The notes under the pieces: model-generated
The model's database searches: none
Seen by the model: the letters and a program-made list of their open reading frames with translations, nothing else
What the model was told of the DNA's origin: nothing
Made by a program: the position numbers and the translations under genes
In this document: positions 17,482 to 60,042 of the stretch, piece after piece
How positions within the stretch are numbered: position 1 is the stretch's first letter
Layout of the letters: every line of letters begins with the position of its first letter
NCBI GenBank assembly: GCA_965207735.1
Contig: OZ242296.1
Span: 2,848,001 to 2,912,000 of the forward strand
Direction of reading: 5' to 3'
Length of the DNA: 64,000 nt
DNA from: Candidatus Versatilivorator sp.
Lineage (GTDB): Bacteria > Acidobacteriota > Terriglobia > Versatilivoradales > Versatilivoraceae

Positions 17482-17547
17482 TGCGGTTTACCTTTCTGGA
17501 ATGGTGGTGGCGGCTGGCTGGAACCCCCAGACTGCCGCCCCTCGGCT

Positions 17548-18690
17548 TTAACTCTTCGCTTTGGCCATCTGTTCGTTGTAGGTGTCGGAGGCGGCCTTGA
17601 GCCGCTTCAGAGCCTCTTCGGGGAGGGTGAGTTTGGTGCCCTTGAAGTTCTCTTCCACGTGCTCGGGCTTTTCTCCTCCGGAAAGGGCGCTGGTCACCTC
17701 TGGGTGAGAGAGCACCCAGGCCACGCACACTTGCGGGCGGCTGACTTCCAGCTCTTTCGCAACCCGGTCCAGCTCCTCGATCACGCCCACCAGGGGCGAT
17801 CCCTCCTCGACCTTTCGGCCCGGCACCAGTCTGCCTTCTCCCAGAGGGCTGAAGGCCATCAGTCCCAAGTTGCCCTTGCGAATCAGCGGAAACAACTGCT
17901 GGCTCATGAAGTCCCGGCGGGCGCCGGCCACGATGTTGTAGTAGTCCTGCAGGCCGGCGAGGCGCGATTTTGCCGACCTGTCAGGCCTCAGTCCGATCTC
18001 GATCAGCTCGTCCACCTGTCTGGGCAGGTGGTTGGAAACTCCCCAGTAACGGATCTTGCCGGACTGCACCAGGCTGTCCATGGCGTCGGCGATCTCCTCC
18101 ATGTGTTCCAGTGTCGGGGTGTCGTGAGGTGGCGAGTGCTGCTCGTCGGAGGGAGTGAGCTTGTCGGCGCCGTGGAGCAGATAAATGTCGATGTAGTCGG
18201 TTTGCAGGCGTTTGAGGCTGGCATTGCACTTTTGGGTCAGGACCTCCTTGGTGAAGACCAGGGGCTTCCCTTCGGAGCCGGTTTGGGCGGCCTTGGTGGA
18301 GATCACCACCTCGCTCCTCAGTCCGGCGATTCCGTGCCCCAATGCGGTTTCAGACCCTCCCATGCCGTAGGCTTCGGCGGAGTCGAAGAAGTTGATGCCG
18401 ATGTCGATGCAGTGCCGAATCAGTTTGTGAGCCTCGGCATCCCCGCCCTCGCGACTGAGATGGCGCCGGAAGGCCGTGCCCTGGCAGTGCCTGGAGACGT
18501 AGAGGTCGGTGTGGCCGAACTGCACCAGGTGCGAGGGACGGCTGGCGGGTTCGGGCGGCGGCGGGGCCTGCCGGCAACCGGACAGCGGAGCCAGCACCAC
18601 CGAGCCGGCAGCCGCTCCGCAGGCCTTGAGGAAGGTCCTGCGGTCGGTCGGTCGGTCGACGTGATGGGAAGGCAGGTGACGTTGGGACAT
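17548..18690 (-). CDS. Aldo/keto reductase with Tat/lipoprotein signal (paralog 1)
   Basis: Same motifs and same 380-aa length as neighbour; tandem duplication. Confidence 0.9.
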   Translation of the reverse strand: MSQRHLPSHHVDRPTDRRTFLKACGAAAGSVVLAPLSGCRQAPPPPEPASRPSHLVQFGHTDLYVSRHCQGTAFRRHLSREGGDAEAHKLIRHCIDIGINFFDSAEAYGMGGSETALGHGIAGLRSEVVISTKAAQTGSEGKPLVFTKEVLTQKCNASLKRLQTDYIDIYLLHGADKLTPSDEQHSPPHDTPTLEHMEEIADAMDSLVQSGKIRYWGVSNHLPRQVDELIEIGLRPDRSAKSRLAGLQDYYNIVAGARRDFMSQQLFPLIRKGNLGLMAFSPLGEGRLVPGRKVEEGSPLVGVIEELDRVAKELEVSRPQVCVAWVLSHPEVTSALSGGEKPEHVEENFKGTKLTLPEEALKRLKAASDTYNEQMAKAKS

Positions 18691-20806: not shown

Positions 20807-21050
20807 CGCCGCCTACGCGGCTGCGTTGGCGCGGATTCGGACGACCCCGGGCTGCCGCCCGGGGCTACACGAGGCCGCAGCTTCGCAGCTCTCTCTTAAC
20901 CCACGACACCGCTGGCGGGTAGGATTTTTAAATAGATTATCCCCGGGCGGAAGCCCGGGGTTCCAGGAAGCCGCGAAGCGGCGCCAGCGCTTAGCCATGG
21001 GCGTCAGCCCATGGAAAGCTGCGCATTTGTGTTGAGCCGCGAAGGCGGCG
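20807..21050. repeat. REP/BIME-like cluster; last unit interrupted by island
   Basis: CGCCGCCTACGCGGCT, CCCCGGGCTGCCGCCCGGGG, AGCCGCGAAGCGGCG, CCATGGGCGTCAGCCCATGG, AGCCGCGAAGGCGGCG. Confidence 0.75.
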
Positions 21051-21320
21051 ACTACAACAGAAAACTTATAACTGCTCATTATAATAGACTTACTGTGGTT
21101 ATCCCTGTTGTAGTCCCCTCATTATATCCCTCTATTTGAACGGGAATCCACTGGACTATTCAGGACGTTGATGGACAGGTCTTGCGATGTTTCAACCCCC
21201 GAGACTCTGCCTCCGAGACCGTCGAGCGGGGTGGTAGGCTGTCCCTGGGTTCGGATCGGAGATATCGGGTTGTGAGCATCCTCCAGCCTTGTCCTTCTCG
21301 GCCTCTCTTCCATCTGTGGT

Positions 21321-21478
21321 CTACTGTTTTTCGAGGGCCTCGTCGATGAGGGCGCGCAGCCGGGATCCGACGTTGAGGTGCCGCTGGCTGCCGAGGCGCT
21401 GGAGGCCTTGACGGGTTTCGGGAGAGACATGGATATGAAGCGGTACACGGTGCAATATAGAGACACACAACAACACAT
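21321..21478 (-). CDS. Small ribbon-helix-helix (CopG-like) protein, possibly degenerate, start uncertain
   Basis: RVPLHIHVSPETRQGLQRLGSQRHLNVGSRLRALIDEALEKQ has an RHH-like pattern; short ACACAAC/GCTACA repeats upstream. Confidence 0.4.
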
Positions 21479-21551
21479 GGAGCGACAAGCAGGTTACAAC
21501 GCTACACAACGCTACATGGAGACACACGCAGCCACCGTGAGCGCGAAAAAG

Positions 21552-21950
21552 TGCTCGATGGCCTTCCCGCCAGGGATCACTGTGGAGGGAGCGACCCCGG
21601 AAAGGGGAGGGGAGGTGGTGGATTTTGGCGTGCACCACCTAACCCTGCCCGGTGCCGCACCAGCGGCAAAAATGAGGGGGTCGCTCCCTCCACTTCCTCC
21701 CCCTCCTGTGCGGCGCCACGACGCGCAGTGCGAGGCGGGGACGCCCGGCGCCGGCGCCGCACTACGCTTTACTGCAGAGGACTCGGGGAATCCTTGCTAA
21801 CCCGCTTCCAATGCGGGTTTCCGGGCACAACCTGGACCACGACGGCGAGGACTTCGCCCTCTGAGAGAGGAGCGTTGGAGTGGTCAATAGCGTGAGCCAC
21901 CTGGTGCGCCACCTGTGTGAGCCACCCCCCGTCTGAAAGGTGGCCACCCA
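21552..21950. repeat. Conserved structured non-coding module, copy A
   Basis: 17-bp IR GTGGAGGGAGCGACCCC/GGGGTCGCTCCCTCCAC (21582-21693), internal hairpins, GTGMGCCAC triplet (21892-21925). Confidence 0.8.
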
Positions 21951-22236
21951 TACGACGCCACGTCCTTGACCCCCGGAGGCGGAAATCGTCGATCGATCCC
22001 GCTCCGTCCGAGGCCGGGGTTTCCTCTTCCGCCTGGTCGATCCTGTCCACGACGGCGTCGAGGCCTCCATGGCTTTCGACGGTGTCCCAATCGGCATCAC
22101 CGATGGTCTGCCGGCGGGCCCCCACTTCTGTCGTGGCCGCCCCCGGATCTCGGCTTGCCCGGGCCTGCAGAACCCGCTGGGTGGGGTCGAGATGGTGTTT
22201 GTCCCACTTCGACGACAACCCATTCGACCCTCTCAA
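21890..22236 (-). pseudogene. 3' remnant of a paralog of the 33315-34310 gene
   Basis: TVESHGGLDAVV...IDDFRLRGSRTWRRMGGHLSDGGWLTQVAH aligns with TVERYGGLNAAL...IDEFHLWGSRRCRRMGGHLKKGGWLTEVAH. Confidence 0.75.
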
Positions 22237-22295
22237 GACTCGGGCTCCTCGGGTCTTCAGGTAACGAGCCGCACATACTGAGCCCCCGCCATGTG

Positions 22296-22808
22296 TCAGG
22301 TCTTCCTAAAGAAGCACACTTCCGTATCGTTCCCATCCCGGCAATCGGTCTTCCGATTGAGCTTTACTGTCAGGTCTCGGCGGAGGTTTACCGCTTCCTG
22401 TTTTTTTCGCTCTTTCTCGGCGCCTGTGGAAAACCGGTCCCCAAACCGCTTCCCGCGCGCGTATATAGGGGGAGACAAGGGGACCGGTTGGTTTTCCACA
22501 GGACAAGTCTTTTCTTTTCTATCAACTGAACCAATTTCCGGGGCTTTTGATTCTTGGGAACCGGTTGAGAGACGGGAACCGGTTTTGAGGGGCTTTTCTC
22601 CGCTTTGCATTCGCTCCTGATCTCCGTCTTCGGCAAGGCTCCACAGCACCTTCTGTTTGCCCTTCCTGCGCCGGATCAGCCGCCCTTCCTCCAGCATCTC
22701 GTTCAAGACGCCGGCGATGGTGTCGTTTCGGGCCTCGATGTTTCTCGTAGTTCCCGGGTCGTGATTTTTGGAGGTGACCCCCTCTACCGGCCCGGCTTCG
22801 GGGTCCAT
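22296..22808 (-). pseudogene. Possible C-terminal remnant of a satellite/plasmid replication protein with origin-like repeats
   Basis: wHTH-like IAGVLNEMLEEGRLIRRRKGKQKVLWSL followed by repeated GG(G)AACCGGTT/GGACCGGTT motifs and TATATAGGG. Confidence 0.35.
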
Positions 22809-23375
22809 TTCAGGGTGACATTCCTGTACGTAGCGATTTGGGATACTTTGCGGGAGGAGGAGGGGCGGTCCTCCAAGGTAGGACGATCAGACGGTGATTA
22901 TCGAGTGAGGCGGATCGTTTAGTCACTCTTCCTTAATGTTTCTGTCACAGAAGCCGCAGCCACAGCCATGGGTTTTACTTCTGATAAGACGCCGTAGACC
23001 TCTGAAATCCAGGTACTACAGGTCGTCGGACCCCGAGAAACGTCAGTACAGGGCATCCTATGGCCTCGTTTTTGTCCCGATCGCACTGAAATTCTCGATC
23101 TCCCACAGGAGGGGAGCCCTCCTGTCGCTGAGAGATCCAGAATCGCCCAGGAAGGCCTTTGGGGGGTATTGGGGTACGCCATGGACCGAGAAAACGCAGC
23201 CTGACCGGCAAAGCTCAAGGATTTACCGGGAATCTGGTGACGGGCTGGAGTTCAAAAGCGGTCCCTGGAACACCACAAGACGCACCCCGCCCAGGTCGCC
23301 ACCGGCCTACATCTTGTGCTTTTTGGGAGGTCCGGAGAGTGGTGTCCGGTAAGTCCTTTGGAATGAGTGGGGGTT

Positions 23376-23404
23376 ACGTCCGATAATAGGGGGATATGTC
23401 AACT
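23376..23404 (+). other. Degenerate dif-like (XerCD) site
   Basis: ACGTCCGATAA-TAGGGGG-ATATGTCAACT resembles XerC arm, spacer, XerD arm; spacer is 7 nt rather than 6. Confidence 0.45.
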
Positions 23405-23927
23405 TCTACACGCCGGCGACGAGGACGTGCAGGACCTGGCCGGCTAGGCCAACTTCTCATGCAGTTTCTCAAATCACTGTCCAAAGAAATCGTGGGGCGG
23501 GGGACTAATTTCAAGTGGGCTCTGTGTAAGGAGTCCAGCTCAAAAAGAAGCCTTGCCCTTTCGCCCCGACACCTCTGGTCGTCAGGGACGGATTGAAATA
23601 TCTGTTGGTGGTACGTCAGGTTGATCGGTTGTAGTAACCGGTGGTGTGTCCGGGGCAGCAGACGCTCGCCCTTGCTGAGCTGGCATCTCGGGAGCAGACG
23701 GAGCAAGTAGGACCAGGCGGACAGCCAGCCTCATTATGTGTCGCCTTTATCCCTTGGTGAAAACTGCTGCTATACTGATTTTCAACGATAGATTCTTACA
23801 GTCAGGAACACACGTTAACGCTCTGCAAGGTATTGTGGCTGGATCGCTGTGCACGCGCAGGAAAACCTGCGGTTCATTGGACACGATGGTTCAGTGACGA
23901 TCAGAGGCGGGCCGGAGAGTAAGGAAC

Positions 23928-26147
23928 ATGAGACTCATGATGCTTCTAATGGCTTGCCTGGTCTTGGCATCCGCTCAGGCATTTGGAACGGACTGCAAGG
24001 ACTGGAACACACAAGGGTTCTTTGAGAAAGCCACAACCGAGGTCGTGACCGGCTGCCTCGAATCTGGAGCTGGCGTCACGGTGCGGAACGATGACGGTAA
24101 CACTCCTCTGCATTTTGCCGCGGGGTGGGCCGAGTACCCTGCCATCGTCACCGCTCTGTTGGGAGTTGGCGCCGACCTCAAAGCCCGGAATGATTGGGAC
24201 GCAACCCCTTTTCATCTGGCGGGCGGCAATGAGAGTCCTGCCATCGCCACCGCCCTGTTGGAGGCAGGAGCGGACCCCAAAGCGAGGACATTGCGCGGGT
24301 GGACACCACTGCATTACGCAGCTCGGCGTGGGATGAATCCTGCTGTCGTTGAGGCTCTGGTTGAAGCAGGTGTCGATCCCGCTGCAGGGGACAATGAAGA
24401 CCGCAACGCCCTGCATTGCATTTTCCCTACCCATCCCCTCGACACTAATATCGACAAGATTGCGGCTTTCGTAGCGGCTTTGGTAAATGCCGGAGTGGAT
24501 CCCAAAGCAAGGGATCGGCAGGGCACTACTGCTCTTCACCTGGCGGCCAGATACATGAGCGATCCTGCCGTCATCGAGGTGATGGTCAACGCCGGAATGG
24601 ACATCGAGGCGCGCAATCGAGGGGGCCGCACCGTTCTGTATTCGGCCGCTCAGTCTCGAGAAAGTCTTGCCATGGTCACAGCTCTACTGGAAGCCGGAGC
24701 AGATCCCAAGGTGCGGGATAACTGGGAGCGAACCCCCTTGCATGACGCCGTCAAACGCGCGGAAAATCCCGCTGTCGTTGACAAGCTGGTCAAGGCGGGA
24801 GTGGACCCCAATGCGCGGGACCGGAGCGGCCACACGGCTCTGCATGAGGCCGCTACTCTCAATCGCAACCCGGCCGTCATCTCCGCGTTGCTGAAAGCCG
24901 GGGTGGATCCCAAGGTGCGGGGCAAGGCTGAGTGCACCCCTCTGCATCACGCTGCCAGGGCCATAAGGAATCCTGCGGTCATCGCGCTACTGATAGAGGC
25001 AGGCGTGAATCCTATGGCACGGGATCGGGAGGGCCGCACCGCTCTGCATTGGGCGGCGCGGGATTCCTTCGATGACCACAACCCTGACTTTCTCCTTGCC
25101 CTTTTGGAAGCTGGGGTAGACCCGAAAGCGCGGGACCGGAACGGTCGAACCGCCCTCCATCTGGCAGCGGAGAACACTCGCAATCCTGCCAACATCCCTG
25201 ATCTCGTGAAGTTGGGGTTGGACGTGGAGGCACGCGACTCCAGGGGATTCACCCCCCTGTTCTGGGCCGCCCAAAAAAGCAGCAATCCTGCCGTCACCGC
25301 GACGCTGGTAAGGCTCGGGGCAGACCCCAGGGCGCGCTATGGGATTGGTTACACCCCCCTGCATGAGGCAGCCCGGGGAAATGAAAATTCATCGATTCTC
25401 ACCGCGCTGATCGAGGCGGGCGCCGACCCGAACAGTCAAACTGAGTACGGCGACACCCCCCTGCACAGTGCGGCCGGCCAAAACAGCAATCCGCACGTCA
25501 TCACCACCCTGCTCGAAGCGGGTGCGGATCCCAAGGCTCGGACACGACGAGGCACCACTCCACTGCATCGGGCAGCTGGCCATAACAGCAATCCACACAT
25601 CGTCACCACGTTGTTGGAAGCGGGAGCGGACCACAACGCACGGGATGATAGGAGGTACACTCCCTTGCACGAGGCGGCTCACAACGTCAATTCAGCCATC
25701 ACGACAATACTTCTGGAATCCGGAGCGGACCCCATGGCGCGGGAGCAACAAGGAGACACGCCGCTTTATTTTGCGGCCGGGAACGCTAATCCGGCCGTTT
25801 TGGCTGCGTTGATCAAGGCAGGTGCCGACCCCAACAGTCAAACAGAATCCGACGGTGAAACCCTTCTGCATCATGCGGCCGATAGCAACACCAACCCGGC
25901 CATTATCTCCGCACTGATCGAGGCGGGTGCTGATCCTAACGCTCAGACTGAACACATGAAACGCACACCCCTGCATGAGGCCGCCGAGTACAATAAAAAC
26001 CCGGCTGTCATCGACACGCTGCTGGACGCTGGAGCAGACCCCAATGTATGGGATAGCGAGTCCAAAATCCCTTGGGACTATGCCAGAGGCAGAGACGAGT
26101 TGAAGGGCTCCGCGGCCTATAGGCGTTTGCAAGAGGCGATTGAATAG
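23928..26147 (+). CDS. Secreted ankyrin-repeat protein (~19-20 repeats)
   Basis: Signal peptide, repeated G.TPLH.AA..N.NPAV...LL.AGADP.AR; RBS AAGGA. Confidence 0.95.
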   Translation: MRLMMLLMACLVLASAQAFGTDCKDWNTQGFFEKATTEVVTGCLESGAGVTVRNDDGNTPLHFAAGWAEYPAIVTALLGVGADLKARNDWDATPFHLAGGNESPAIATALLEAGADPKARTLRGWTPLHYAARRGMNPAVVEALVEAGVDPAAGDNEDRNALHCIFPTHPLDTNIDKIAAFVAALVNAGVDPKARDRQGTTALHLAARYMSDPAVIEVMVNAGMDIEARNRGGRTVLYSAAQSRESLAMVTALLEAGADPKVRDNWERTPLHDAVKRAENPAVVDKLVKAGVDPNARDRSGHTALHEAATLNRNPAVISALLKAGVDPKVRGKAECTPLHHAARAIRNPAVIALLIEAGVNPMARDREGRTALHWAARDSFDDHNPDFLLALLEAGVDPKARDRNGRTALHLAAENTRNPANIPDLVKLGLDVEARDSRGFTPLFWAAQKSSNPAVTATLVRLGADPRARYGIGYTPLHEAARGNENSSILTALIEAGADPNSQTEYGDTPLHSAAGQNSNPHVITTLLEAGADPKARTRRGTTPLHRAAGHNSNPHIVTTLLEAGADHNARDDRRYTPLHEAAHNVNSAITTILLESGADPMAREQQGDTPLYFAAGNANPAVLAALIKAGADPNSQTESDGETLLHHAADSNTNPAIISALIEAGADPNAQTEHMKRTPLHEAAEYNKNPAVIDTLLDAGADPNVWDSESKIPWDYARGRDELKGSAAYRRLQEAIE

Positions 26148-26454
26148 CAGCGGTAGACTCTGGCCTCTGGCCAGCGTTTCCGCAATGAGGACGATTAGTG
26201 GAAGACAATGCAGTGTTTTGGTCGCAACGAATTGCTGGGCTGGCGACGGCTGCCGAACGAGCGCACTAGCGCATTTTCGAGTGGCCTCCCCCATAGGACG
26301 GTCCACTTCGAGAGCGATGACTGGTCCGGTCTCCTCAGCCGCCCAGTCCCGGAAGCTGGTCCGTCTTCAGCCATTCGGGAATACTGGTCACGGTCCTGTT
26401 CCCCGCAGACGCCGAGATGAATCGGAGTAAGAAACAGGCTCATCCAATGACCCT

Positions 26455-26885
26455 GGAATGATCGACGATTTCCGCCTCTGGGGGTCAAGCAGGTGCCGTC
26501 AGATGGGCCGCCACGTTTCAGACGGGGGGGTGGCGATCTAAGATGGCGACGATCTTGATACGCACAACGCTTCTCTCTCAGAGGGCGGAGCCCTCGCCGT
26601 TGTGGTCGGGGACTTCCCCGAAACGCTGCATCAGACGCGGGACAACACGGATTTCCCGCGTCCGTTGCGGAAAAGCGAAGCGAGGCTGCGCCTCGCGCGT
26701 CCCCCCTCGTCCGGCGGGGCGGCGCCCGCACGAGAGGGGTGCTGGTGGAGGGAGCGACCCCACCCTTTTGGCCGCTGGTGCGGCGCAGGGAAGGGCAAAG
26801 GTGGCGGCCCCTGTGGCCGCCCGTTGCCCCCCTTGCGGGGAGGTCGCTCCCTCCACAGAGATCCCTTGCGGGAAGGCCATCCAAA
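26455..26885. repeat. Conserved structured non-coding module, copy B (inverted), with last codons of the associated gene
   Basis: GMIDDFRLWGSSRCRQMG tail on + strand, then IR 26745-26856. Confidence 0.8.
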
Positions 26886-26905
26886 GCTGCCGAGGTCAGG
26901 GCCGA

Positions 26906-27150
26906 TCAACTGATCGGTTCTGCCCCTCGACATCCGCCGGCCAGGTAGCCGGCCCAGTCATCCATGAGCCGGCGTCGACGCTCGAACAGGTCCGAGCGCC
27001 GGTAGGCGGCCTCGATCTGGCTGCGGACCTTGTGCGCCAGGGCAGGCTCCAGGACCTCCAGGGCGCGACGGCACAGAGGGACCCGGTGCTCGCGATTCCC
27101 CTTCGTGCGAGGGGCCGGGATGCTCCACACGCCCTCGTCGCTGTCGCTTC
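26906..27150 (-). pseudogene. Internally deleted tyrosine integrase 3' fragment
   Basis: GVWSIPAPRTKGNREHRVPL...ALAHKVRSQIEAAYRRSDLFERRRRLMDDWA. Confidence 0.8.
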
Positions 27151-27299
27151 TCGCGCCATCGAGCCCTCGGTCATGGGAGAGGGAGAAGGGAGCGGCGGGG
27201 GGTGATGGAGGGGCCGGGGGAGAGCTCTCCCCGGTCGGGGGTTCGAAGGGGCCGGAGCCCCTCGCCAGCCCCAATGTATTACATTGGGTAGGCTGGCTC

Positions 27300-27410
27300 C
27301 CCGGCACTACGCGGTGCGCCGCCGGCCTCGCTGTCCCCCCGCCTCGCACGGTGCGCTGGCGCGCCGCACGGGAGGGGGAGGAAGTGGAGGGAAGGCCATC
27401 GAGCGCTGCC
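27300..27410. repeat. Partial non-coding module, copy D (large hairpin deleted)
   Basis: CCCCGCCTCGCACGG...GGAGGGGGAGGAAGTGGAGGGAAGGCCATCGAG matches the flanks of copy A. Confidence 0.65.
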
Positions 27411-27414
27411 GAGG

Positions 27415-28010
27415 TCAGGGCGGATCAACCGATCGGTCCGGCGCTCGACACCCGCCGGCCAGGTAGCCGGCCCAGTCGTCCATCAGGACACGCCGGCGTT
27501 CGAACAGGTCGGAGCGGGCATAGGCCGCCTCGACCCGGTTGCGGACCACATGCGCCAGGGCCGCCTCGATCACCTCCCGGGGATGATCAGTCTCTTCGGC
27601 CGCCCAGTCCCGGAAGCTGGATCTGAACCCGTGCGGCACCGCCGCAATCCCCTGCTCGCGGACCAGCCACCGCAGCTCCTTGTCATTGAGCGGCTTCCCT
27701 TGCCCACGGGTGAACACCAGCGGACCGCCTCCCTCATCCAGTGCCTGCACTGCCTCGAGAATCTCCAGGGCACGTCCACACAGCGGCACCTCGTGCTTCC
27801 GGTTGGCCTTCATCCGCCTGGCCGGGACGGTCCATACGCCAGCGTCCCGATTGATCTCCTCCCACTCGGCCCAGCGCACCTCACTCCACCTGGCCGCCGT
27901 CAGCACCAGAAACTCGAAGGCCAGCTTGGCCATCTCGGGCGCCGTCGCTGCCCGCACCATCCGGATGGCCACAGCCACCTCCCGATGGGGCAAGGCCTGC
28001 ATGTGCTCGT
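27415..28010 (-). pseudogene. Tyrosine integrase, catalytic half only
   Basis: EHMQALPHREV...LTAARWSE...HGFRSSFRDW...LAH...AAY, very similar to the C-terminal half of 34431-35663. Confidence 0.85.
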
Positions 28011-28223
28011 TCAGGCGGTAGGCATTGACGCTCCCAGGGACAATTCTCTCACCGGTAAGTTCCAACACTACTCCAAACTGTGGGTACAGACACGAAAACG
28101 ACATCAAGGTGGCCTTCAAGTCTCGAATTGGCCAAGGGATTCGGCCAACCCACATCGCCCTCAGAACCTGAGCAGATCAAATAGCTTGTAACCCTGACAA
28201 GGTTCTTTTCCCCATCGTCCGGG

Positions 28224-31200
28224 TCACAGCTCTTCAATCCTGATCCATTGAACAGCACACCCCAGATTACGGTAATCCGAAGACGCTCCAGCCTGGCTGG
28301 GGTTCCACATGGGGCGCACCGCAAAGCGAATGGTCGTGGGGCCTTTGTCAATGGCTCCCGGTGCAATGGGGAATGCGTACTCCTGGAACTGCTCCCCTAC
28401 CCCGATCAGCTCTTTTGTGTCCAGTCTCATCTCATTGACCCAAACGGTGAGAAATTGTCGGAACTTGGGATCCGGATTCGACTTGACGGTTCGGATCACG
28501 AGTTGATAGTCCTCGCCAGGATTCAAGGGAACAGGCCATACCAGGCTTGGAGCAAGCCCGGACCAGGAATACCCGTCAGCTTCCACCGGATAGAAATCAT
28601 TCCGTTCTACTCCCTCGCACTCGGCAATGAATCCCACCTGATAGGCACGGGTCCCACCCATCGGAACCAATGACTGGAGCTTGAGGCAATCCAGCATAAA
28701 CCCCAGATCACGTGTATCCTGACCATACCCCATGGCCGAAGGGTTAAAGGACTGCGATCGAATCTCGACGAGGTTTCTCTCCCCTCGGGCCAACTGCGAT
28801 CGGTCGATCGGAATTTTGTAGTCGCTAAATCCCGGGGACAACCGTAAGGACCCCAAATCATGACCGTTTAGAAGGATCCGGATGGGAGATTCGGTTGCTG
28901 CCCCAGCGTCCGTCCGAGATAGACGTGCGATCAGAACTGCCGGGTAAGTGGTATCGATTTCTGGCATCTCCACAGAAGCATCCCCCCGGCTCCATCGGAA
29001 CGTATTGCCGCCTGACTCAAGTTCCGCTTGATAAAACCCTTTGGACGCGTAGCCGAAGCTGGAGTGCCGGTTGAGAGCTTGGATTGGCTTGGGGTGTTCT
29101 CGCTTACGAGGCTTTACCTCGTAAAGCTGAAGACTGTAGTGCACTTTTTGCATTTTCTGGGGAAGACGCTCAAAAGTACGTTCAACCAAGTCGCTGGCGA
29201 AATGAAAGCGTTCGCTGGGCTCGAACAGGTACTTGGAACTGTCCAGAGATGTCCACTCGTCACAGGAAATGAGAAAGACTCTCTTTTTTTGGGCTAGAAA
29301 TTCCCCGACCACCTGCTCAAACGAGGCGGGATCCGGCTCGTCGTGCGCAAGAGGAAATACGGACTGCCCGAACAGATTCCTAAGGGGACCGACAAAAAAC
29401 TCCTGAGCTCGGCCGTACTCGAACAGGATCACATCCGCTTCTCTTGTCCGGCTGGCAAGTAACGCCATTTGCGCCCAGGATCCACCAAGCTCTCCTTGGC
29501 GCAAAAAGGGCCAGGCCGCAATCGTCTGAGTGGCAATCATGGCCACCAACAACCCCGATCCGCAAACCCGCGGCAAATATCGACGAAAGGTGGATTGAGC
29601 CGCTACCCATGGGTATCTGGAAGCCAACCGACAAAAGCGCTGGATTGCCAGGCCTGCCAGGATAAGCATTGCCGGAATCGCGACTTCGGCATAGCGGCGG
29701 ACGACCCAGTAGTTGTCGGGAAAGGCGCGAGACTTGTAACCGTAGAACAGCAGGAAAGCCGCCAGCAGGAGCAAGAATGGCAAGGGGCGCACCTGTCCTC
29801 TCAATACGACCTGACGCAGTGCCACGATAGCGCCGATAAGGGCCAGACAAAGGCCCAAGGGAGAGAGATACCATCCCAGGCGAACCAGATTCAACTCGTC
29901 GTAGTAGGACACGAATCCCTGGTGGGGGGCGGCCAGCGGCAGCAGGTTGGCGCCCGAGTCCATCATGGGGCGGAAAAAATATCCCCAGGCGAAGGCAATA
30001 ATCAACAAACCCGAGAGGGTCACGAAGACGATCCGGCGCCGGGTCGCGGGATCTCCCCACGACATGGAAGGGGGAAACCGTAGCTCCCACCAGGCTCCCA
30101 TCAGCCGCCTTGAAGACCACGCCGCGGCCGTTGCCAACAAGGCCAGAGCCAACAGCCACCCCCATTGGCGGTCAAGGAAGGAAAGCACACCCTGGTTGAA
30201 CAGGATACCCAACACGTAGGGATAGGCAAAAAGCACAATGTGATCCAAAGAAAAAGCCAAACCGATGGCCAAACCTGCTGCGACTGGTCGGACCGGCAAG
30301 CCGACCCGCCACTTGGGCACCAACCACACCAGAAACAGGAACAACGACACTGCCAGAATCGCCAGCACGGAATCAATGCGCACCATCAGGCTCAATCCGA
30401 CCACCAATCCCGAAAGAAATCCCAGACCGGTTTGCCGGCGGGACAAGGCCAGCGTCAACATCCAAACCCCGGCAAGAATCAGTACCTGGGCCAAGATCTC
30501 GCTGAAGGGGCTTCGGACCAACCAAATCTGACCCAGGTTCAGGCAAAGTAAGGTGGAGGCCATCAACCCGATTGTCCTGGACCGAAAAATCTCAACGGCC
30601 AGTGCAACCAACAGCACGAGGCTCAGCAAACCCAGGATGACATTGAAACCGAACAGTCCGTCGAACCTCCAGAGTTTGAATGCCAGGGACAGCCAGAGCG
30701 GAAACAGGTGTAGATACTGCGGCAACATTTCCCCGGTCTCCGCATCCAGCAGCGAAAAACCCGGCACGGCTTCCAGGTAAAGCGCATTTTCAAGAAGGAC
30801 CGGCAGGAACAGTTTCTGCCGGTCCTCATCAAAATCCTGAAAGTCAGGATCGCTGAAACGCAAGCCCTGCTCTTGAGCCAAGCGCACCGCGATGTTGGCA
30901 TGTTCCCCGGGATCTCTCTGGCTGGTGATATATTCGGCTGTTTTTCCGAAGGTGAATAACCCCAGCAGCAGGATGCCTGCCAGCCACAGATCGCTCCACC
31001 CCAACCGTGGCCGCCACCGGACCGCCAGCCAGAGGTTGACCGGCCGGCGCCATCTCAGAGTCCCTGACTTCAACAGGCCGGCGAAACAGACTACGCTGTA
31101 TACCGCCAACAGAACAAACAGATAGCGCACTCGAAGCCCACCCCGCTGGGCGCTCACAATGAGGAAACAGGAGGTTACAACCAATCCGCAGACAGTGCTG

Positions 31201-31382
31201 AGCAAGGCGGGGCCGATCAGGCTCGTGAACAGGTCGGTCCGGGTGCGGTACGGTGTTCCCGATCCGCCAGGATCCGGAAGCCGCCCAACGGCAAGCCGGT
31301 AGGTCAACCAACCGCTGACGCCAAACAGGCCGGCGAATTGAAACAGAAGCAAGTAGTCCTTCCAGCCTGGAACAAAATCCAT
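28224..31382 (-). CDS. Large polytopic membrane protein, GT-C/ArnT-like glycosyltransferase with C-terminal periplasmic beta domains
   Basis: Many TM helices, RDPG loop, SEIL, RID, RRY motifs; repeated RW/DTRDLG/RNLG domains; downstream of galE. Confidence 0.6.
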   Translation of the reverse strand: MDFVPGWKDYLLLFQFAGLFGVSGWLTYRLAVGRLPDPGGSGTPYRTRTDLFTSLIGPALLSTVCGLVVTSCFLIVSAQRGGLRVRYLFVLLAVYSVVCFAGLLKSGTLRWRRPVNLWLAVRWRPRLGWSDLWLAGILLLGLFTFGKTAEYITSQRDPGEHANIAVRLAQEQGLRFSDPDFQDFDEDRQKLFLPVLLENALYLEAVPGFSLLDAETGEMLPQYLHLFPLWLSLAFKLWRFDGLFGFNVILGLLSLVLLVALAVEIFRSRTIGLMASTLLCLNLGQIWLVRSPFSEILAQVLILAGVWMLTLALSRRQTGLGFLSGLVVGLSLMVRIDSVLAILAVSLFLFLVWLVPKWRVGLPVRPVAAGLAIGLAFSLDHIVLFAYPYVLGILFNQGVLSFLDRQWGWLLALALLATAAAWSSRRLMGAWWELRFPPSMSWGDPATRRRIVFVTLSGLLIIAFAWGYFFRPMMDSGANLLPLAAPHQGFVSYYDELNLVRLGWYLSPLGLCLALIGAIVALRQVVLRGQVRPLPFLLLLAAFLLFYGYKSRAFPDNYWVVRRYAEVAIPAMLILAGLAIQRFCRLASRYPWVAAQSTFRRYLPRVCGSGLLVAMIATQTIAAWPFLRQGELGGSWAQMALLASRTREADVILFEYGRAQEFFVGPLRNLFGQSVFPLAHDEPDPASFEQVVGEFLAQKKRVFLISCDEWTSLDSSKYLFEPSERFHFASDLVERTFERLPQKMQKVHYSLQLYEVKPRKREHPKPIQALNRHSSFGYASKGFYQAELESGGNTFRWSRGDASVEMPEIDTTYPAVLIARLSRTDAGAATESPIRILLNGHDLGSLRLSPGFSDYKIPIDRSQLARGERNLVEIRSQSFNPSAMGYGQDTRDLGFMLDCLKLQSLVPMGGTRAYQVGFIAECEGVERNDFYPVEADGYSWSGLAPSLVWPVPLNPGEDYQLVIRTVKSNPDPKFRQFLTVWVNEMRLDTKELIGVGEQFQEYAFPIAPGAIDKGPTTIRFAVRPMWNPSQAGASSDYRNLGCAVQWIRIEEL

Positions 31383-31424
31383 GGGAATTCCTCATGCCGA
31401 CCGCCCTTGTGTGTCCAGGATCGG

Positions 31425-32414
31425 TCAGCCCAAAAGTTGCTTGCGTTGCCAGTTCAGCGCGGTTGCAACGATGTCGTCCAGGCAGCCATGTTTCGGTGCC
31501 CAGGCCAGAACCTTGAAAGCTTCGGAGGCATCAGCCACCAGGGTCGAAGGATCTCCGGTTCGCCGCGGGCCCTCCTTCACAGGCACCGCCCTGCCCGAAA
31601 GCCGTGCGACCGCCGCAACGATCTGTCTCACCGAGTGTCCCCGTCCCGTCCCCAAGTTCAGCGCAACACTCCGGCCGCCGTCCAGCGAATAGCGTAGGGC
31701 CAACCCGTGGGCCTCAGCCAGATCCGAAACGTGGACATAGTCTCGAACCGCGGTACCGTCAGGTGTTGCATAATCCGTCCCGAAAATCTCAAAACAGCTT
31801 CGCTTCCCGAAGGCCGTTTCTATGGCCAGGGGGATCACGTGAGTTTCGGGTCGATGGCTTTCGCCGATCTCGCCGTCCGGGTCGGCGCCGGCAGCATTGA
31901 AGTATCTCAGACAGACGTAGCCAATGCCATAGGCCATGCTGAAATCCCGCAGCATGTGCTCCACGACCAGCTTGCTTACCCCGTAGGGGGTGATCGGAAC
32001 CTTGGCCTGAGTCTCCGGGATCGGAAGCTTCCCCGGCACTCCATAGATGGCGCAACTGCTGGAAAAGACAATGGACCCTATGCCCCGATCCAGCATTCCC
32101 TTCAGAAGGTTCAGGCTTCCCACCAGATTGTTGTGGTAATACCTGGCCGGATCCACCACCGACTCGCCGACGTCACACAGGTCTGCAAGGTGCATCACCC
32201 CGACCGGCCGATGCTGCTCAATCACTGCTTTCAATCCAGCCTCATCCGTCAAATCAACCCTTTCGAACGGTCCCCACTTTACCGCCGATTGATGTCCACG
32301 GGAGAGACAGTCCACTGCGACCGGATTAAATCCCTCGGTTGCCAGCGACTTGCAGACATGGCTGCCGACATAACCGGCTCCACCGGTGACCAGTATGGTT
32401 TGCCCCAGGACCAC
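31425..32414 (-). CDS. galE: UDP-glucose 4-epimerase
   Basis: TGGAGYVGSH, VGESV.DP..YY.NN, YGVSK, LRYFNAAGADP, DGTAVRDYVHV. Confidence 0.92.
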   Translation of the reverse strand: MVLGQTILVTGGAGYVGSHVCKSLATEGFNPVAVDCLSRGHQSAVKWGPFERVDLTDEAGLKAVIEQHRPVGVMHLADLCDVGESVVDPARYYHNNLVGSLNLLKGMLDRGIGSIVFSSSCAIYGVPGKLPIPETQAKVPITPYGVSKLVVEHMLRDFSMAYGIGYVCLRYFNAAGADPDGEIGESHRPETHVIPLAIETAFGKRSCFEIFGTDYATPDGTAVRDYVHVSDLAEAHGLALRYSLDGGRSVALNLGTGRGHSVRQIVAAVARLSGRAVPVKEGPRRTGDPSTLVADASEAFKVLAWAPKHGCLDDIVATALNWQRKQLLG

Positions 32415-32961
32415 GCTTGCCTTCCCACAGGGGCCAGATCAATGGCCCGCTTCCGGAGCCACTGCTCCTGATGGCCCCAGTTCGACTCATTCAATCAGAA
32501 AACGCCGGTCGCCGCAATTGAGGGGTAAGCGAGACTGCACCTCAGACCGGCAAGGAATGAAAGGGGAAAATGATCTCGGCGAACGGGCAGGAAGAAGCAC
32601 GAAGGAACACGAATAGACTTATTACGGAGTCCAGTGGCCCGCCACCGCGTTGCCTTGCCCCAGAGGACGGTCTACAATGCGCCGATTGTTAGAGGCGGAT
32701 TTCTCACCGAAAAGCTGCGTCAATGTTGAAACGATATTTATCCCTATTTCTGACCAAGAATCTATTGGACCACCCAAGAGGTTTATTGACAGAATGGCGA
32801 GCGATCCACACTGAGTCCGTGAGTCCAGACCATCGAGTAAGGTGGCAATTTGCCCCTGCTGCGGATTGGAGACCGCTGGTTGTGCGGCCGGTCTGTGGTG
32901 TGTTGGCGCGGACCGTGACAGGCTGCAGAGTCCCGCTCGGCTCCGCTGTCCAGCACTTGGC

Positions 32962-33365
32962 TTCTTAGCCGGCTCGACCGCCTTCTCTCAGGGATCAATG
33001 TGGAGGGAGCGCCCCCCCGAGGGGCGGGGTAAGTGGTGGGCCGAAGGGTGGACCACTTACCCCTCCCCGGTGGCGCACCAGCGCCGAAAAAGGGTCGCTC
33101 CCTCCACTTCCGCCTCCTCCTGTGCGGCGCCACGACGCGCCGTGCGAGGCGGGGACCCGCGGCGCCGGCGCCGTACTACGCTTTACCGCAGAGGACTCGG
33201 GGAATCCGTTCCAACCCGCTTCCAATGCGGGTTTCCGGGCACAACCTGGACCACAACGGGGAGGACTGCGCCCTCTGAGAGAGGAGCGTTGGGGTGGTCA
33301 AAAGCGTGCGCCACTTAGTGAGCCACCTCGGTGAGCCACCCCCCCTTTTTAAGGTGGCCACCCAT
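32962..33365. repeat. Conserved structured non-coding module, copy C
   Basis: IR 33000-33107 and GTGMGCCAC triplet 33306-33339 overlapping the stop of the adjacent gene. Confidence 0.8.
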
Positions 33366-34310
33366 ACGACGGCACCGCCTTGACCCCCAGAGGTGGAATT
33401 CGTCGATCATTCCCTGGCCCTGGGGCTCCGGCATTGCCTGCTGCAATTGGTTGATTTTCTTGAGGGCGGCATTGAGGCCGCCATAGCGTTCGACTGTTTC
33501 CCGGTCGGCGCTGGAGACAGCCCACCGTAGAGTGAGAAGCTCTCTGCCGGCCTCAGTCAGGTCCCTGCCTACCCAGGATCGCATCACCCGCTCGGCGCGG
33601 TCCAGCAGTTCCTGCTCCCAGGCAACGGCAACCACTTCGATCCGCCACCCTAACTCGCGCAGCATCTGCCAGAGCGGCCGGTGGGCCTCTCTCCAGGAGT
33701 CCAGCTCAGTACGGGTTTCCATGCCGGGGTCGATGTAGACGAACAGGGCCGCCTCCGGCCCCATGGCAACCGGCATCCTGAGGGGAAAATACTGGACCCG
33801 CCCCTTGGCATGGCCGGCGTAGATCCTGCGGGGCAGCATCCATGGCTCGATCCCGAGCTGTTGGAAGCAAGCGAGCTTCTCCCGCTCGGTCGGCAGCCAG
33901 GCCAACTCCGGATGATCGAGCACGAAATCGAGCAATAGCAGTCGCCGGCGGGTGACTTCAAGCGAGGTCTCCCGGCGGTGACGGATGGGGGGGATCTCCA
34001 GTTCCCCGTAGATCTGCTTGCCGAAGATCCGGCAAATCCGGCGGCCGTCGGTGATGGTCTCCGACGCGATTGGCTTGTGGGAAATGCGTGTCCGGAGCAA
34101 TGCCCGGATAAAGCGGTTGGCGCTGGACTTGGCGTATCCGAAGAAAGCCTCGACCTGGTCCCGGGTGAACAGGCCCGAGTGCAGGCAGACCAGGGTGATC
34201 CATTCGGCCTGTTGGGGGGTGAAGCCAAGAGGCCTCAGCAGTTTTTCCCGTCCCTTCAGGTGAGGAAACTTCGTCGTTTCCTTGGGTCGGCCGACCTGGA
34301 GAAAGGTCAT
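33315..34310 (-). CDS. Uncharacterised wHTH-like protein, candidate replication/relaxation protein of the island
   Basis: GFTPQQAEWITLVCLHSGLFTRDQV..FIRAL; follows integrase; remnants at two other module copies; function inferred. Confidence 0.6.
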   Translation of the reverse strand: MTFLQVGRPKETTKFPHLKGREKLLRPLGFTPQQAEWITLVCLHSGLFTRDQVEAFFGYAKSSANRFIRALLRTRISHKPIASETITDGRRICRIFGKQIYGELEIPPIRHRRETSLEVTRRRLLLLDFVLDHPELAWLPTEREKLACFQQLGIEPWMLPRRIYAGHAKGRVQYFPLRMPVAMGPEAALFVYIDPGMETRTELDSWREAHRPLWQMLRELGWRIEVVAVAWEQELLDRAERVMRSWVGRDLTEAGRELLTLRWAVSSADRETVERYGGLNAALKKINQLQQAMPEPQGQGMIDEFHLWGSRRCRRMGGHLKKGGWLTEVAH

Positions 34311-34430
34311 CAGAATTCCATGGGGTTCCACAGGGAAACAAAACGGTGGTTCGGCGGGGAGCTGCGGTTCACTGCCAACGAGCAGGGAGATGGCAATGGA
34401 TTGTTTCAGGACCGATCCCCCTGGGCCTCT

Positions 34431-35663
34431 TTACTCTCGGGGCTTCCGGTCCTCCCCCATCCCCTGGTCCAGATAACGCGCCCAGTCGTCCATCAGGACA
34501 CGCCGGCGCTCGAACAGGTCGGAGCGGGCATAGGCCGCCTCCACCCGGTTCCGGACCACATGCGCCAGGGCCGCCTCGATCACCTCTCGTGAATGATCGG
34601 TCTCCTCACCTGCCCAGTCCCGGAAGCTGGAGCGGAACCCGTGCGGCACCGCCGCAATCCCAAGATCCCGCACCATCCACCTCAGCTGCTTGTCGTCGAG
34701 CGGCTCCCCTTGCCCACGGGTGAACACCAGAGGTCCGGATCCTTTGCCCAGTGCCTCCACTGCCTTGAGAATCTCCAGGGCACGTCCACACAGCGGCACC
34801 CGGTGCTGGCGGTTGGCCTTCATCCGACTGGCCGGGACGGTCCATACACCAGCGTCCCGATCGATCTCCGCCCATTCGGCCCAGCGCACCTCACTCCACC
34901 TGGCTGCCGTCAGTACCAGGAACTCGAAGGCCAGCTTGGCTACCTCCGACGCTGTCGCTGCCCGCACCGTCCGGATGGCCGCAGCCACCTCCCTATGCGG
35001 CAAGGCCCGCATGTGCTCGGTAACGTCCTGTTGGGGACCCAGGACCGGGCCGATCCTGTCGCAGGGGTTGTCGATTCTGTACTCCATGGCTACGGCCCAT
35101 TCCAGGACCGCCCGCAGGCGCTGGCGCACCCGCCGGGCGCTGGAGGCCTTCCGGTGCCAGATAGGGGTGAGGATCTCAAGCAGATCGGCGCTGGTGACCT
35201 CTGAGACCGGCATCTTGCCGATGCGGGGGAAGGCGTACCGCCTCAGGCTGGACATCCACTCGCGGTGGTGACGCCGGCCTCGCCAGCCGTCCCGCTTCTG
35301 TTCCAGCACACGTGAGGCTGCTTCGACAAAGGTGGGAATACCCTCGGTGCGTCGCTTCTCGGCAAGAGGATCTCCGCCCTCACGGGCCAGCTTGCGGTTA
35401 GCCAGGGCCTTCTCCCTGGCCTCGGCCAGGGAGACCAGGGCGAGGCTGCCGAGACCGAGCTCCCGGCGACGGCCACGGACGACAAGGCGTTGAATCCAAC
35501 TGCGGGTTCCGCTGGGCTGGACGAAGAGGTACAATCCGTTTCCATCGGCGTATCTTCCGGGCGGAGCGGAGCGCAGGAAGGCGGCCGAGAGGGCGTTGCT
35601 GGGGTGGCGGCCGGCGGGTTTGGTCTTGGGTCGGACAGGAGCGAAGTCCGTTACAGTATCCAT
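34431..35663 (-). CDS. P4-like tyrosine integrase with N-terminal arm-binding domain
   Basis: GRYADGNGLYL..SW..RRRELGLG arm domain; catalytic R (TAAR), K, HGFR, LAH, Y. Confidence 0.93.
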   Translation of the reverse strand: MDTVTDFAPVRPKTKPAGRHPSNALSAAFLRSAPPGRYADGNGLYLFVQPSGTRSWIQRLVVRGRRRELGLGSLALVSLAEAREKALANRKLAREGGDPLAEKRRTEGIPTFVEAASRVLEQKRDGWRGRRHHREWMSSLRRYAFPRIGKMPVSEVTSADLLEILTPIWHRKASSARRVRQRLRAVLEWAVAMEYRIDNPCDRIGPVLGPQQDVTEHMRALPHREVAAAIRTVRAATASEVAKLAFEFLVLTAARWSEVRWAEWAEIDRDAGVWTVPASRMKANRQHRVPLCGRALEILKAVEALGKGSGPLVFTRGQGEPLDDKQLRWMVRDLGIAAVPHGFRSSFRDWAGEETDHSREVIEAALAHVVRNRVEAAYARSDLFERRRVLMDDWARYLDQGMGEDRKPRE

Positions 35664-35895
35664 CCCCCCATTATATGGGGGATGGCAGTGGATTGCAAGG
35701 GATGTTGGTAGCAAGTCAAGCCACGGCAGGACTTATATAAAACACTCATAAATAAGACAGTTATAGACTCTACTGGACGGAGCTAGACATCACTGGATTT
35801 TATAGGGACGTTGCGGCGGCGGCAGCAATCATCCGCGGTATTCGATCTCAAACCTGCCGGACCGCTCCCACCCCAGTCCGCACCCTGAAGACTCC

Positions 35896-35927
35896 AAAAA
35901 ACAAAACCCCCGGCGTAAGCGCGGGGG
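35896..35927 (-). terminator. Rho-independent terminator of the LRR gene
   Basis: CCCCCGCGCTTACGCCGGGGG followed by TTTTGTTTTTT on minus strand. Confidence 0.7.
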
Positions 35928-35971
35928 TCCGAGTTGAACCGCAAATGTTTTAGCAGCCTTCAGAAGCCAAA

Positions 35972-36619
35972 CTAGGACTTCTCTTCCTTCTTCTCTTCCG
36001 GTTCCTCTACTTCCGGCACTTCCGATTCCTTCCAGCCGACGTCGATCTTGCAGTCGGGCAGAGCCTTCTGCAGTTTCTCTACTCCGGCCTCGGTCACCTT
36101 GGTCTGCCACAAGTAGAGATTCTTGAGCCCCTTCAACCCCTCCAGGTGTGCCAAGCCGGCGTCGGTGATGCCGGTCTGATAGAGGTTGATGTAAGCCAGG
36201 TTCTGCAGATCTTTCAGATTCGCCAAGCCGGCGTCCGAGACCTTGGTCCTCTCCAGGTGGAGGCGCGTCAGCGAAGTCAACCCCGCCAGGTGGGGCAATC
36301 CCTCGTCGGTCACGTCGGTCCCCCCCAAGTGAAGCCACACCAGGTTCTCTACCTCCTTCAGGACACCCAGCTCCCCGTCCAGGGCCGGAGGCTGGGGCGC
36401 TCCGGGCTTGGGAGTCTCGAACTGGCGCAACCCGTCATGGTTGCGGCCCAAGTGGAAATAGACCTCGAGGCCGTCGTCGTTCTGGGCGATCTTCATGACC
36501 TTGCCGCCGAGCTGCTCGATTTTCTGAACAATCGCCGAATCGGGTCCCCCTTCCTGCTGGGCCGCAGCCGACCCGATCATCGCGAAGGAGATCCAAACCG
36601 CCATGGTGATGCTCCGCAT
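35972..36619 (-). CDS. Exported leucine-rich-repeat protein
   Basis: Signal peptide MRSITMAVW..; repeats L..L.L..T.VTD.GL..L. Confidence 0.85.
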   Translation of the reverse strand: MRSITMAVWISFAMIGSAAAQQEGGPDSAIVQKIEQLGGKVMKIAQNDDGLEVYFHLGRNHDGLRQFETPKPGAPQPPALDGELGVLKEVENLVWLHLGGTDVTDEGLPHLAGLTSLTRLHLERTKVSDAGLANLKDLQNLAYINLYQTGITDAGLAHLEGLKGLKNLYLWQTKVTEAGVEKLQKALPDCKIDVGWKESEVPEVEEPEEKKEEKS

Positions 36620-36920
36620 GGAAACCTTCCTTTCCTGAACCCGGGATGGGCCTGTGATCTGCTCGACCCCGCCGGCAACTCCATCGTGAACTCGCCCCGA
36701 CGTGCCCGCGGCGCCGGTCCTGGTTCTCGACCCCTGGAAGCACCGAAACCACCCGGTTCGCCCGAGGCCGCGCTCCATTATACTCCTATACTCAGTGACG
36801 GCAATCCCCGGACCGGTTTGCAAGCAGCCGAGGACCGCGGGCGTCGATTACGGGCGTTGGGTTGCGCGGCGTTCCCACCACTCTCCGCCTTATGGGGCAA
36901 AAGCGACGTCACGGAATGAC

Positions 36921-37226
36921 GCCCCCCGGGAGCGCGGGCGTCCCGCCCGCACAAGGCCCGGCACAGCTTTGCCTTTCGCCTCCACTTCGATCAACCCGCA
37001 ATGGCGCCATTGCTCCCCTTCCGCCCGACTGACGCAATGCCCGACGACAGGTTCGCTTCCTGCAGCTTCGATCGCCCGGTTCGCGACGAGAGACATCTCC
37101 GACCAGTCAGGCGCATCCCGGCGGAGAACCCCGTTCAAGGACACCCGGTGTGGTCGGCCAGGGGCCGGCGGGGGAGGGCGTCGGCAGGGGCAGGATGCGG
37201 GCGGGACGCCCGAGCTCCCGGGGGGA
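36921..37226. repeat. REP-doublet / MITE-like element with terminal inverted repeats
   Basis: CCCCCCGGGAGCGCGGGCGTCCCGCCCGCA ... TGCGGGCGGGACGCCCGAGCTCCCGGGGGG. Confidence 0.65.
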
Positions 37227-39927: not shown

Positions 39928-40033
39928 TTGGGGATGCCCCCAACGGCGGCGTCGTTACGGACTAAGAAGCGAACTGTGTTCCCTGCTAAAATATGGTCTG
40001 ATTCAGAACAACCATTCTCGTTTTGAAGGAACC

Positions 40034-40318
40034 ATGAACCCTCCACATTTCGAACCCCGACGAAGCTGGACAATCAAAGAGGCCAAGGCGCGTCTATGCG
40101 AAATTTTACGCCTCGCCGAAGAGGAGGGACCACAGCAAATCGGTAGGAGAAAACCCTTCGTCGTCGTGCCTGCCCCGGACTGGTACGCGAGGAGACCACC
40201 GCGCAAACCCATGGGAAAGTGGTTGGTGGACAACATGCCTCGCGGGGTGAACCTGGATGTCTCCGGGAAAAGGGAATCCGGGAGAGAAATTCCGTTCTCC
40301 GCAGCCAAACCAGCATGA
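40034..40318 (+). CDS. Phd/YefM-family antitoxin
   Basis: WTIKEAKARLCEILRLAEEEGPQQI..FVVVP. Confidence 0.8.
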   Translation: MNPPHFEPRRSWTIKEAKARLCEILRLAEEEGPQQIGRRKPFVVVPAPDWYARRPPRKPMGKWLVDNMPRGVNLDVSGKRESGREIPFSAAKPA

Positions 40319-40375
40319 ACGGGATCTACTCCTCGCCAACGTTATCTCAGAGTTGACAAGGCATCCGCCATGGTT
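40315..40375 (+). pseudogene. Truncated, frameshifted PIN/VapC toxin start
   Basis: ATGA overlap with antitoxin stop; MNG then shifted frame LLLANVISELTRHP resembles LLDTNVISEL. Confidence 0.55.
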
Positions 40376-40426
40376 AGCCGAACTGAAACGGCCATGCTGA
40401 GCGGCGCATGACCAATCCAGGACAAT

Positions 40427-46490: not shown

Positions 46491-46493
46491 GGG

Positions 46494-47771: not shown

Positions 47772-47814
47772 GGCGTGAAGAAAGTTATAGAGAATCGAGG
47801 TTGTTGTCAACGCC

Positions 47815-59966: not shown

Positions 59967-60042
<76 letters not shown>

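Follow-up and report, generated by a model that had tools for sequence, protein, structure and literature searches.

The window analysed here is a 64,000-nucleotide stretch (contig C1, 2848001-2912000) of the genome of Candidatus Versatilivorator sp. (G000, a single 5.26-Mb contig), and it contains an island of 14,771 bp (window positions 21051-35821) with a GC content of 0.60, against 0.65 in the flanks. The gene of a P4-type tyrosine integrase lies 152 bp inside the right end of the island. Such an integrase very probably inserts 15 related elements of this genome, the island among them, at a 7-bp core of a hairpin resembling repetitive extragenic palindromic (REP) DNA, by ordinary recombination between the attachment sites attP and attB on a duplex target. 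Relatives of the integrase (76-92% identity) are found in Ca. Versatilivorator, Terriglobia and Acidobacteria records, and sponge metagenomes are among the sequencing runs that contain this DNA, so that the host is likely a sponge-type acidobacterium. The two ends of the island and the integrase gene comprise the following features.

20845-20890 (+) and 20969-21014 (-): two Acido-Lenti-1 (RF01687) units in opposite orientation, with Rfam scores above gathering; the REP-like cluster that hosts the island.
21035-21050 (+): host side of attL, a 16-nt hairpin unit (5-bp stem, 4-nt loop), of which 21044-21050 is the 7-bp crossover core.
21051-21058 (+): left end of the element, a predicted core-type integrase site, inverted relative to 35807-35814.
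21151-21176 (+): three direct repeats with a 10-bp period, likely arm-type sites in view of the arm-binding domain of the integrase.
34431-35663 (-): intact gene of the 410-aa P4-type tyrosine integrase, with PF13356 (arm-binding), PF22022 (core-binding) and PF00589 (catalytic), all above cut-off.
35670-35698 (-): match to a sigma-70-type promoter, 6 nt upstream of the start codon of the integrase gene (10 of 12 positions; 0.1 expected in shuffled sequences).
35753-35798 (+): five direct repeats with a 10-bp period, again likely arm-type sites.
35807-35821 (+): right end of the element, with a predicted core-type site (35807-35814) and the 7-bp core of attR (35815-35821).
35822-35861 (+): host side of attR; the bases of the repeat's right-hand part run on into the decayed 3' end of an IS200-like Y1 transposase gene.

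The letters quoted in the initial annotation for 21035-21050, 35815-35834 and 1669-1695 were confirmed one by one, and the 7-mer that it saw at both ends is indeed identical (21044-21050 and 35815-35821). The two motifs said to be shared by the inner ends are also present. The first (21114-21127 and 35664-35677) is explained at the right end by the sigma-70-type promoter match, and the second (about 21149-21169 and 35791-35813) by the direct repeats with the 10-bp period. The left end has a -10 hexamer, and no full match to an outward promoter was found there. The reported lack of a tRNA at the ends holds as well, the sole tRNA recognized by ARAGORN in the window being at 59967-60042. A tRNA target was rejected, with no tRNA near either end and the RF01687 repeat alone matching Rfam at the target locus. 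The R-K-H-R-H/W-Y catalytic set of the integrase is complete by motif (R254, K282, H341, R344, H367 and Y377).

Searching the whole genome with the first 150 and the last 181 bases of the island yielded 26 left-end and 22 right-end matches. Sixteen of the left ends begin directly after the same 16-nt hairpin unit, 15 of them paired with a right end 2.07-44.4 kb away and one an orphan, and 15 of the 22 right-end matches end in the core plus the right-hand bases of the repeat, which makes a chance 7-bp match, the caveat of the initial annotation, unlikely. At the 15 paired elements (subfamily a, a1 to a15, the island being copy a6), the 16-nt unit at the left varies at a single loop position, and the five bases beginning at +2 after the core do not vary at all; the core itself is perfect at 15 of 15 attL and 13 of 15 attR. 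Among the elements fetched from the closest comparison genome (G002, about 96% identical to G000), the core stands at all five left ends and all six right ends. We further examined 80 related integrase loci, 13 of which encode integrases 87-92% identical to that of the island. The prediction that close homologues would lie beside a split repeat was borne out in 11 of these 13, all in other genomes, which end at the core and the right half of the hairpin; of the two exceptions, one lies inside an integrase gene and one is cut short. The 15 elements amount to 227 kb, and together with seven sister elements to 357 kb, or 6.8% of the genome.

The target is a repeat of high copy number. Units of 16 nt with up to two mismatches occur 183 times in the 5.26 Mb, against 13 times in the reversed genome; 106 are intact, 15 are followed by an element end (the orphan included, the diverged a1 missed), and 62 have other right sides. 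The units occur in clusters, and the targeted hairpin (5-bp stem, 4-nt loop) has a predicted folding energy of -6.9 kcal/mol. RF01687 has 121 matches in G000 and is matched in 25 of the 31 genomes searched. In one of the 20 Y1 transposase loci scanned, in the congeneric genome G012 (L264, on C304, 1120-2010), RF01687 repeats flank a 154-aa IS200-like Y1 transposase on both sides (82.7 bits as IS200-like, 31.2 bits as REP-associated tyrosine transposase, RAYT), and it is this arrangement that justifies regarding the target repeat as REP-like DNA. G000 itself holds only a 61-aa remnant of a transposase of this type; the right flank of the island resembles the 3' end of the G012 gene to a degree reached by none of 1000 shuffled sequences. 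Two other partnerships were rejected. A canonical GTAG-REP with a class 2 RAYT does not fit, as the targeted hairpin (mostly YYGA) lacks the GTAG-type foot that its neighbouring hairpin has (99 copies), and the transposase is not above the cut-off of NF047646; and the Y1 transposase at locus L013 of G000 is flanked by another repeat with no RF01687 match. RF01687 is filed in Rfam as an RNA of unknown function, whereas here it acts as mobile REP-like DNA and as the target of an integrase. The repeats on both sides of the 154-aa gene recall the REPtron-like repeats of class 3 TnpA-Y1 proteins, as far as these are covered in the consulted part of PMC6006769, and are a candidate likeness.

Within the attachment sites, the position following the core holds A at every attL, while attR has G there in 11 elements and A in 4; the position preceding it is not the same in element and host. 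The exchange would accordingly be confined to 7 bp. When the two ends of an element are joined, the 8-mers flanking the core are inverted repeats, with five of eight positions identical and two more both pyrimidine in the 15 elements. The attP sites of lambda-family integrases consist of inverted core-type sites around a 7-bp spacer together with arm-type repeats, and the joined ends of the island are predicted, from symmetry and periodicity, to have this same layout. The integrase would then use its arm domain to bind the 10-bp-period repeats and its core domain to bind the inverted 8-mers, cut on either side of the 7-bp spacer, and exchange strands with any copy of the repeat in which the core matches and is followed by a purine; excision would yield a circle able to re-enter at another copy. 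Three 2,068-bp derivatives (91-96% alike), found at three loci with the same broken integrase, suggest that such 2.07-kb deletion forms may have moved in trans, and cargo may accumulate through nested insertion of sister clades. Perfect cores are found in 15 of 15 occupied units and 77 of 106 free ones (Fisher p 0.021), and a purine after the core in 15 of 15 and 80 of 106 (p 0.039); both tests are weak and the copies are kin, so that these figures point only weakly to a sequence reading of the target. Fifty-seven free units fit exactly, with the matching core and the purine.

We also considered that the integrase recognizes not duplex DNA but a structure extruded from the repeat, a single-strand hairpin or a cruciform, much as attC is read by integron integrases. 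The folding of the target would suit this, as would the use of two adjacent heptamers, on opposite strands of one and the same hairpin, by two clades of the family. However, the element contributes a symmetric duplex site that has arm repeats, the protein is of the P4 type with an arm-binding domain and matches none of the integron-integrase families of NCBIfam, and coding targets of sister clades have no such hairpin. The intact repeat at 1669-1695, to which the initial annotation likened the restored site, is instructive here: its sequence is as quoted, but its first core base differs from that of the island, and hairpins with this variant, which fold equally well, make up 21 of the 106 intact units and none of the 15 occupied ones. 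Reading of a folded target is thus very unlikely, and recombination at a duplex site is preferred.

Integration at separate loci is further indicated by the empty sites of relatives. Twelve of the 15 subfamily-a loci were compared with G002, a11, a14 and a15 being outside the comparison. At a1, G002 has a precise empty site with both flanks of about 700 nt at 94-96% identity; at a3 it has a precise empty site with the repeat at the same locus and with its own spacer; and at a8 it rejoins at the core, matching over 42 nt before a deletion. The sister element b2 also has a precise empty site in G002. At a5 and a9 the G002 repeat is intact with the same right half and a different left half. The flanks at a6 and a13 are exchanged. 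The comparison is uninformative at a2, a4, a7, a10 and a12, where the repeat is absent or a flank replaced (by an insertion sequence, IS, at a10), and at b1 and c3.

These loci also bear on the possibility of a single ancestral insertion whose copies were carried along passively when the IS200-like Y1 transposase moved the repeat, or when repeat clusters underwent homologous exchange, with an integrase that does not choose the target. Six elements (a2, a5, a8, a9, a11 and a15) do lie in one longer composite repeat that is present or absent between genomes, and the repeat flanks a Y1 transposase in G012. Yet the other elements have unrelated spacers and right flanks, a12 occupies the other hairpin position of its cluster, the homology common to such sites is only 16-22 nt, and the transposase of G000 is a mere remnant. 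With a1 and a3 empty in G002 and each keeping its own spacer there, the locus-specific empty sites largely refute passive spread, which we judge highly improbable, and insertion by the integrase itself is again the better account.

The island itself has a more complicated history. The repeat that follows the Nramp gene is unbroken in G002, with the same spacer as in the window, and it is followed by DNA that in G000 is found after attR of a13 (4512887); the same DNA comes next after Nramp in G004, G011 and G001, and also, with an insert further on, in G008 and G013. The repeat before the leucine-rich repeat (LRR) gene is intact in G002 and G009, and its left half corresponds to G000 4539489 (-), where a third right half follows it with no element between; in G002 and G009, the locus of this third half lies next to the left flank of a13. 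Three repeat loci have thus evidently exchanged flanks in G000 relative to G002 and G009, each break falling within the 16-nt unit (junctions 2869050/2883815, 4505257/4512887 and 4539489 in G000); two left and three right halves were checked base by base, and the third left half differs in G002, which carries further rearrangements of its own. Such an exchange requires at least two recombination events. In copy a6, the repeat halves at left and right evidently stem from two different ancestral repeats, so that excision of the copy would leave an intact-looking hybrid repeat and not, as the initial annotation had it, the original empty allele. Candidates for the agent are the integrase, recombination between element copies, and recombination between repeats, and REP-REP recombination is on record, as cited in the consulted part of PMC1525189. 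Two of the three swapped junctions are occupied by elements (one being our starting point), against an occupancy of about 13%, which by a hand estimate is not significant. An assembly error is a possible source of the swap. It is hardly credible that the junctions arose as 7-bp matches by chance in GC-rich DNA or as chimeras of the assembly at repeats. The flanks of the island are, it is true, not neighbours in any relative checked, and neither junction is spanned with 31 bases on each side by any of the contigs listed. But 15 elements of G000 have the same junction, which is seen again in other genomes; short-read contigs of runs X19 and X20 match 35799-36945 across attR with zero differences; the match of a contig in runs X21 and X22 begins exactly at 35815 after 10 unlike letters; and a chimera could account at most for the flank swap and not for the family.

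Sister clades keep the layout of the element ends while their targets change, as seen across the 80 related loci. Clade b (81-85% identity) targets, on the opposite strand, the neighbouring heptamer of the hairpin used by the island, and clade c (76-84%) a dispersed gene relic, the frame of which resembles the start of a GxxExxY protein. At G000 4554028-4598799, a clade-b and a clade-a element lie about 670 bp apart in one repeat cluster, forming a nearly continuous island of 45 kb. Also in G000, a 73% identical integrase is inserted in an integrase gene of the family, and a group of 65% identity occupies an internal repeat of the elements; insertion of the latter would explain nested remnants such as that at 26458-28155 of the window. 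Two identical copies of the 65% integrase, at 636624 and 1014107 and both in this internal repeat, may reflect a recent move of the nested element. Integrases of about 70% identity occur in Gemmatimonadota, other Acidobacteriota and Gammaproteobacteria; 15 of their loci end in VTVT-coding stretches (L202-L203, L205-L214, L217, L219 and L224), six in another integrase gene, five in the family's own gene and seven in a C-rich repeat. The VTVT targets lie in long surface-protein-like frames in the six cases translated, and insertion there could truncate or reshuffle adhesins. The targets had been called neutral. This stands for the island's own repeat insofar as only six of the 106 intact units lie inside codon-biased open reading frames (ORFs), which make up 73% of the genome, and the other 100 outside long coding frames; it fails insofar as occupied sites coincide with rearrangement breakpoints and sister clades enter coding repeats. 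On a quick tree of 105 proteins, eight target classes need eight changes against a shuffled mean of 54, and the forward-hairpin class needs three, the classes having been labelled by eye from the right junction only, with 15 of the 80 loci left unlabelled and with kin that are not independent. Thirteen differences are fixed between the integrases of the two largest clades, four of them at residues 325-334.

Besides the weak tests and the hand-labelled classes already mentioned, several observations weigh against insertion by the integrase at the hairpin core. One mismatch separates the attR core from the attL core in two of the 15 elements. A clean empty site was found at only three of the 12 subfamily-a loci compared, two showing the right half only, two being swapped and five uninformative. 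None of the 10 relatives checked joins both flanks of the island, whose own empty allele is thus absent from them, and in a contig-level comparison of reads no 21050-35822 excision joint was among the joints listed, nor was a circle or recombination observed. Against these stand 15 elements at the core of a repeat with more than 100 free units, and the initial annotation is upheld in proposing a family of elements that target multi-copy REP-like sites with a crossover core of 7 bp.

Between its ends the island carries the following features.

21582-21693 (no strand): conserved non-coding hairpin with a perfect 17-bp stem, a second copy of which lies at about 33000-33107.
21762-22236 (-): decayed 3' remnant of an ORF338 gene (tblastn, 44% over 105 aa).
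23928-26147 (+): cargo gene of a 739-aa ankyrin-repeat protein (Pfam Ank_2, E-value 3e-115).
26458-28155 (-): further, decayed copies of the core module inside the island; they include integrase remnants at 27415-28155 and 26906-27349.
28224-31382 (-): cargo gene of a 1052-aa membrane protein, weakly like LA_3751-family glycosyltransferases (NCBIfam NF047440, E-value 5e-6, below cut-off).
31425-32414 (-): cargo gene of the UDP-glucose 4-epimerase GalE (TIGR01179, above cut-off).
33315-34331 (-): ORF338, a conserved companion gene, with a winged-helix N-terminus and a C-terminal domain that is weakly restriction-endonuclease-like.

The minimal set conserved among the elements consists of the left end, the 17-bp-stem hairpin, ORF338 (often decayed), the integrase and the right end. 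Close homologues of ORF338 number 323, and a profile search yields 2,178 representatives; the protein matched no Pfam, NCBIfam or PHROGs family, and Foldseek gave no match at E<=0.001. Its C-terminal part shows a weak match to the restriction-endonuclease-like fold of SdaI (Z 7.7, rmsd 3.9, 123 residues aligned), and an ArdC-type domain is fused in three of the 45 distant members scanned. A role as relaxase is no more than a lead. Related elements at L201 and L231-L233 carry, or sit in, a further gene that presumably encodes an HUH relaxase. The hairpin region matches all 21 other mapped elements of G000, the module is present in 34 of the 80 related loci, and it is possible that the hairpin is a transfer or replication origin. 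A scan of five window proteins revealed no phage or satellite genes, and no relaxase, coupling protein or type IV secretion system matched Pfam among 16 window ORFs. No excisionase or directionality factor turned up, although no search was aimed at excisionases. A second pair of a glycosyltransferase-like gene and galE (82% and 91%) lies at G000 1158270-1162447, 13 kb beyond element c2. Elsewhere in the window, two tandem near-copies of a 380-aa gene lie at 16339-18690, which we take to be aldo/keto-reductase-like with a Tat-like leader, and positions 40001-48000 form a second low-GC stretch (0.55-0.58).

It is possible, though we hold it with some doubt, that a whole P4-type integrase lineage of sponge-type symbionts lives on repeats, each clade on another multi-copy site of 16-20 bp. 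The lineage may then act as a cargo-carrying transposon whose att sites also drive large rearrangements of the chromosome, and ORF338 together with the conserved hairpin may form a transfer module not described before. The 57 exactly fitting free copies would let the family of the island reach its 15 copies while genes are rarely struck, and att sites would be tied to genome shuffling in a sponge-type symbiont. Clades that are about 80% identical and have different targets offer a natural series for the residues that set the choice of attB. Target switching becomes directly testable, and tools for multi-copy integration may follow. Acido-Lenti-1 gains a simpler reading as REP-like DNA.

In teaching, each P4-type integrase is usually assigned a single site. 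The integrases of the P4/CP4-57 type resemble the present one in domain layout, catalytic residues, the position of the integrase beside an att end, the 7-bp spacer, the inverted core sites and the arm-type repeats (the NF007246 match of the island integrase is below cut-off). However, the target here is a repeat with more than 100 free copies instead of one tRNA, tmRNA or gene end, and 15 sisters coexist without a fragment that replaces the end of a gene. Tn916 and CTnDOT also enter many genomic sites through a circular intermediate, at AT-rich or loose sites and with tolerance of non-matching overlaps, whereas here the core matches at 13 of 15 attR and 15 of 15 attL. The integron integrase, which acts on attC, is not what is met here, there being no IntI-family match and an arm-binding domain being present. 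In the literature searched, in which subscription journals are thinly covered, REP targeting was found for insertion sequences only, and integrases at REPs are not described in the consulted parts of PMC3733652, PMC12884075, PMC13626063 and PMC10111431. The REP-targeting IS1397, ISKpn1, IS621, ISPa11 and ISPpu9/10, according to the consulted part of PMC1525189, likewise enter a multi-copy, mostly extragenic palindrome at a fixed position. They use DDE or IS110-type transposases, in contrast to the three-domain tyrosine integrase, the attP-like ends and the load of up to 44 kb of the present family. Helper-embedded phage-inducible chromosomal islands (PICIs), as described in the consulted part of PMC10111431, share with the present elements repeated switching of sites, targets in mobile elements and the lack of a replacement sequence in attP; their sites are, however, late genes of prophages, one or two per genome, whereas those of the island family are dispersed repeats.

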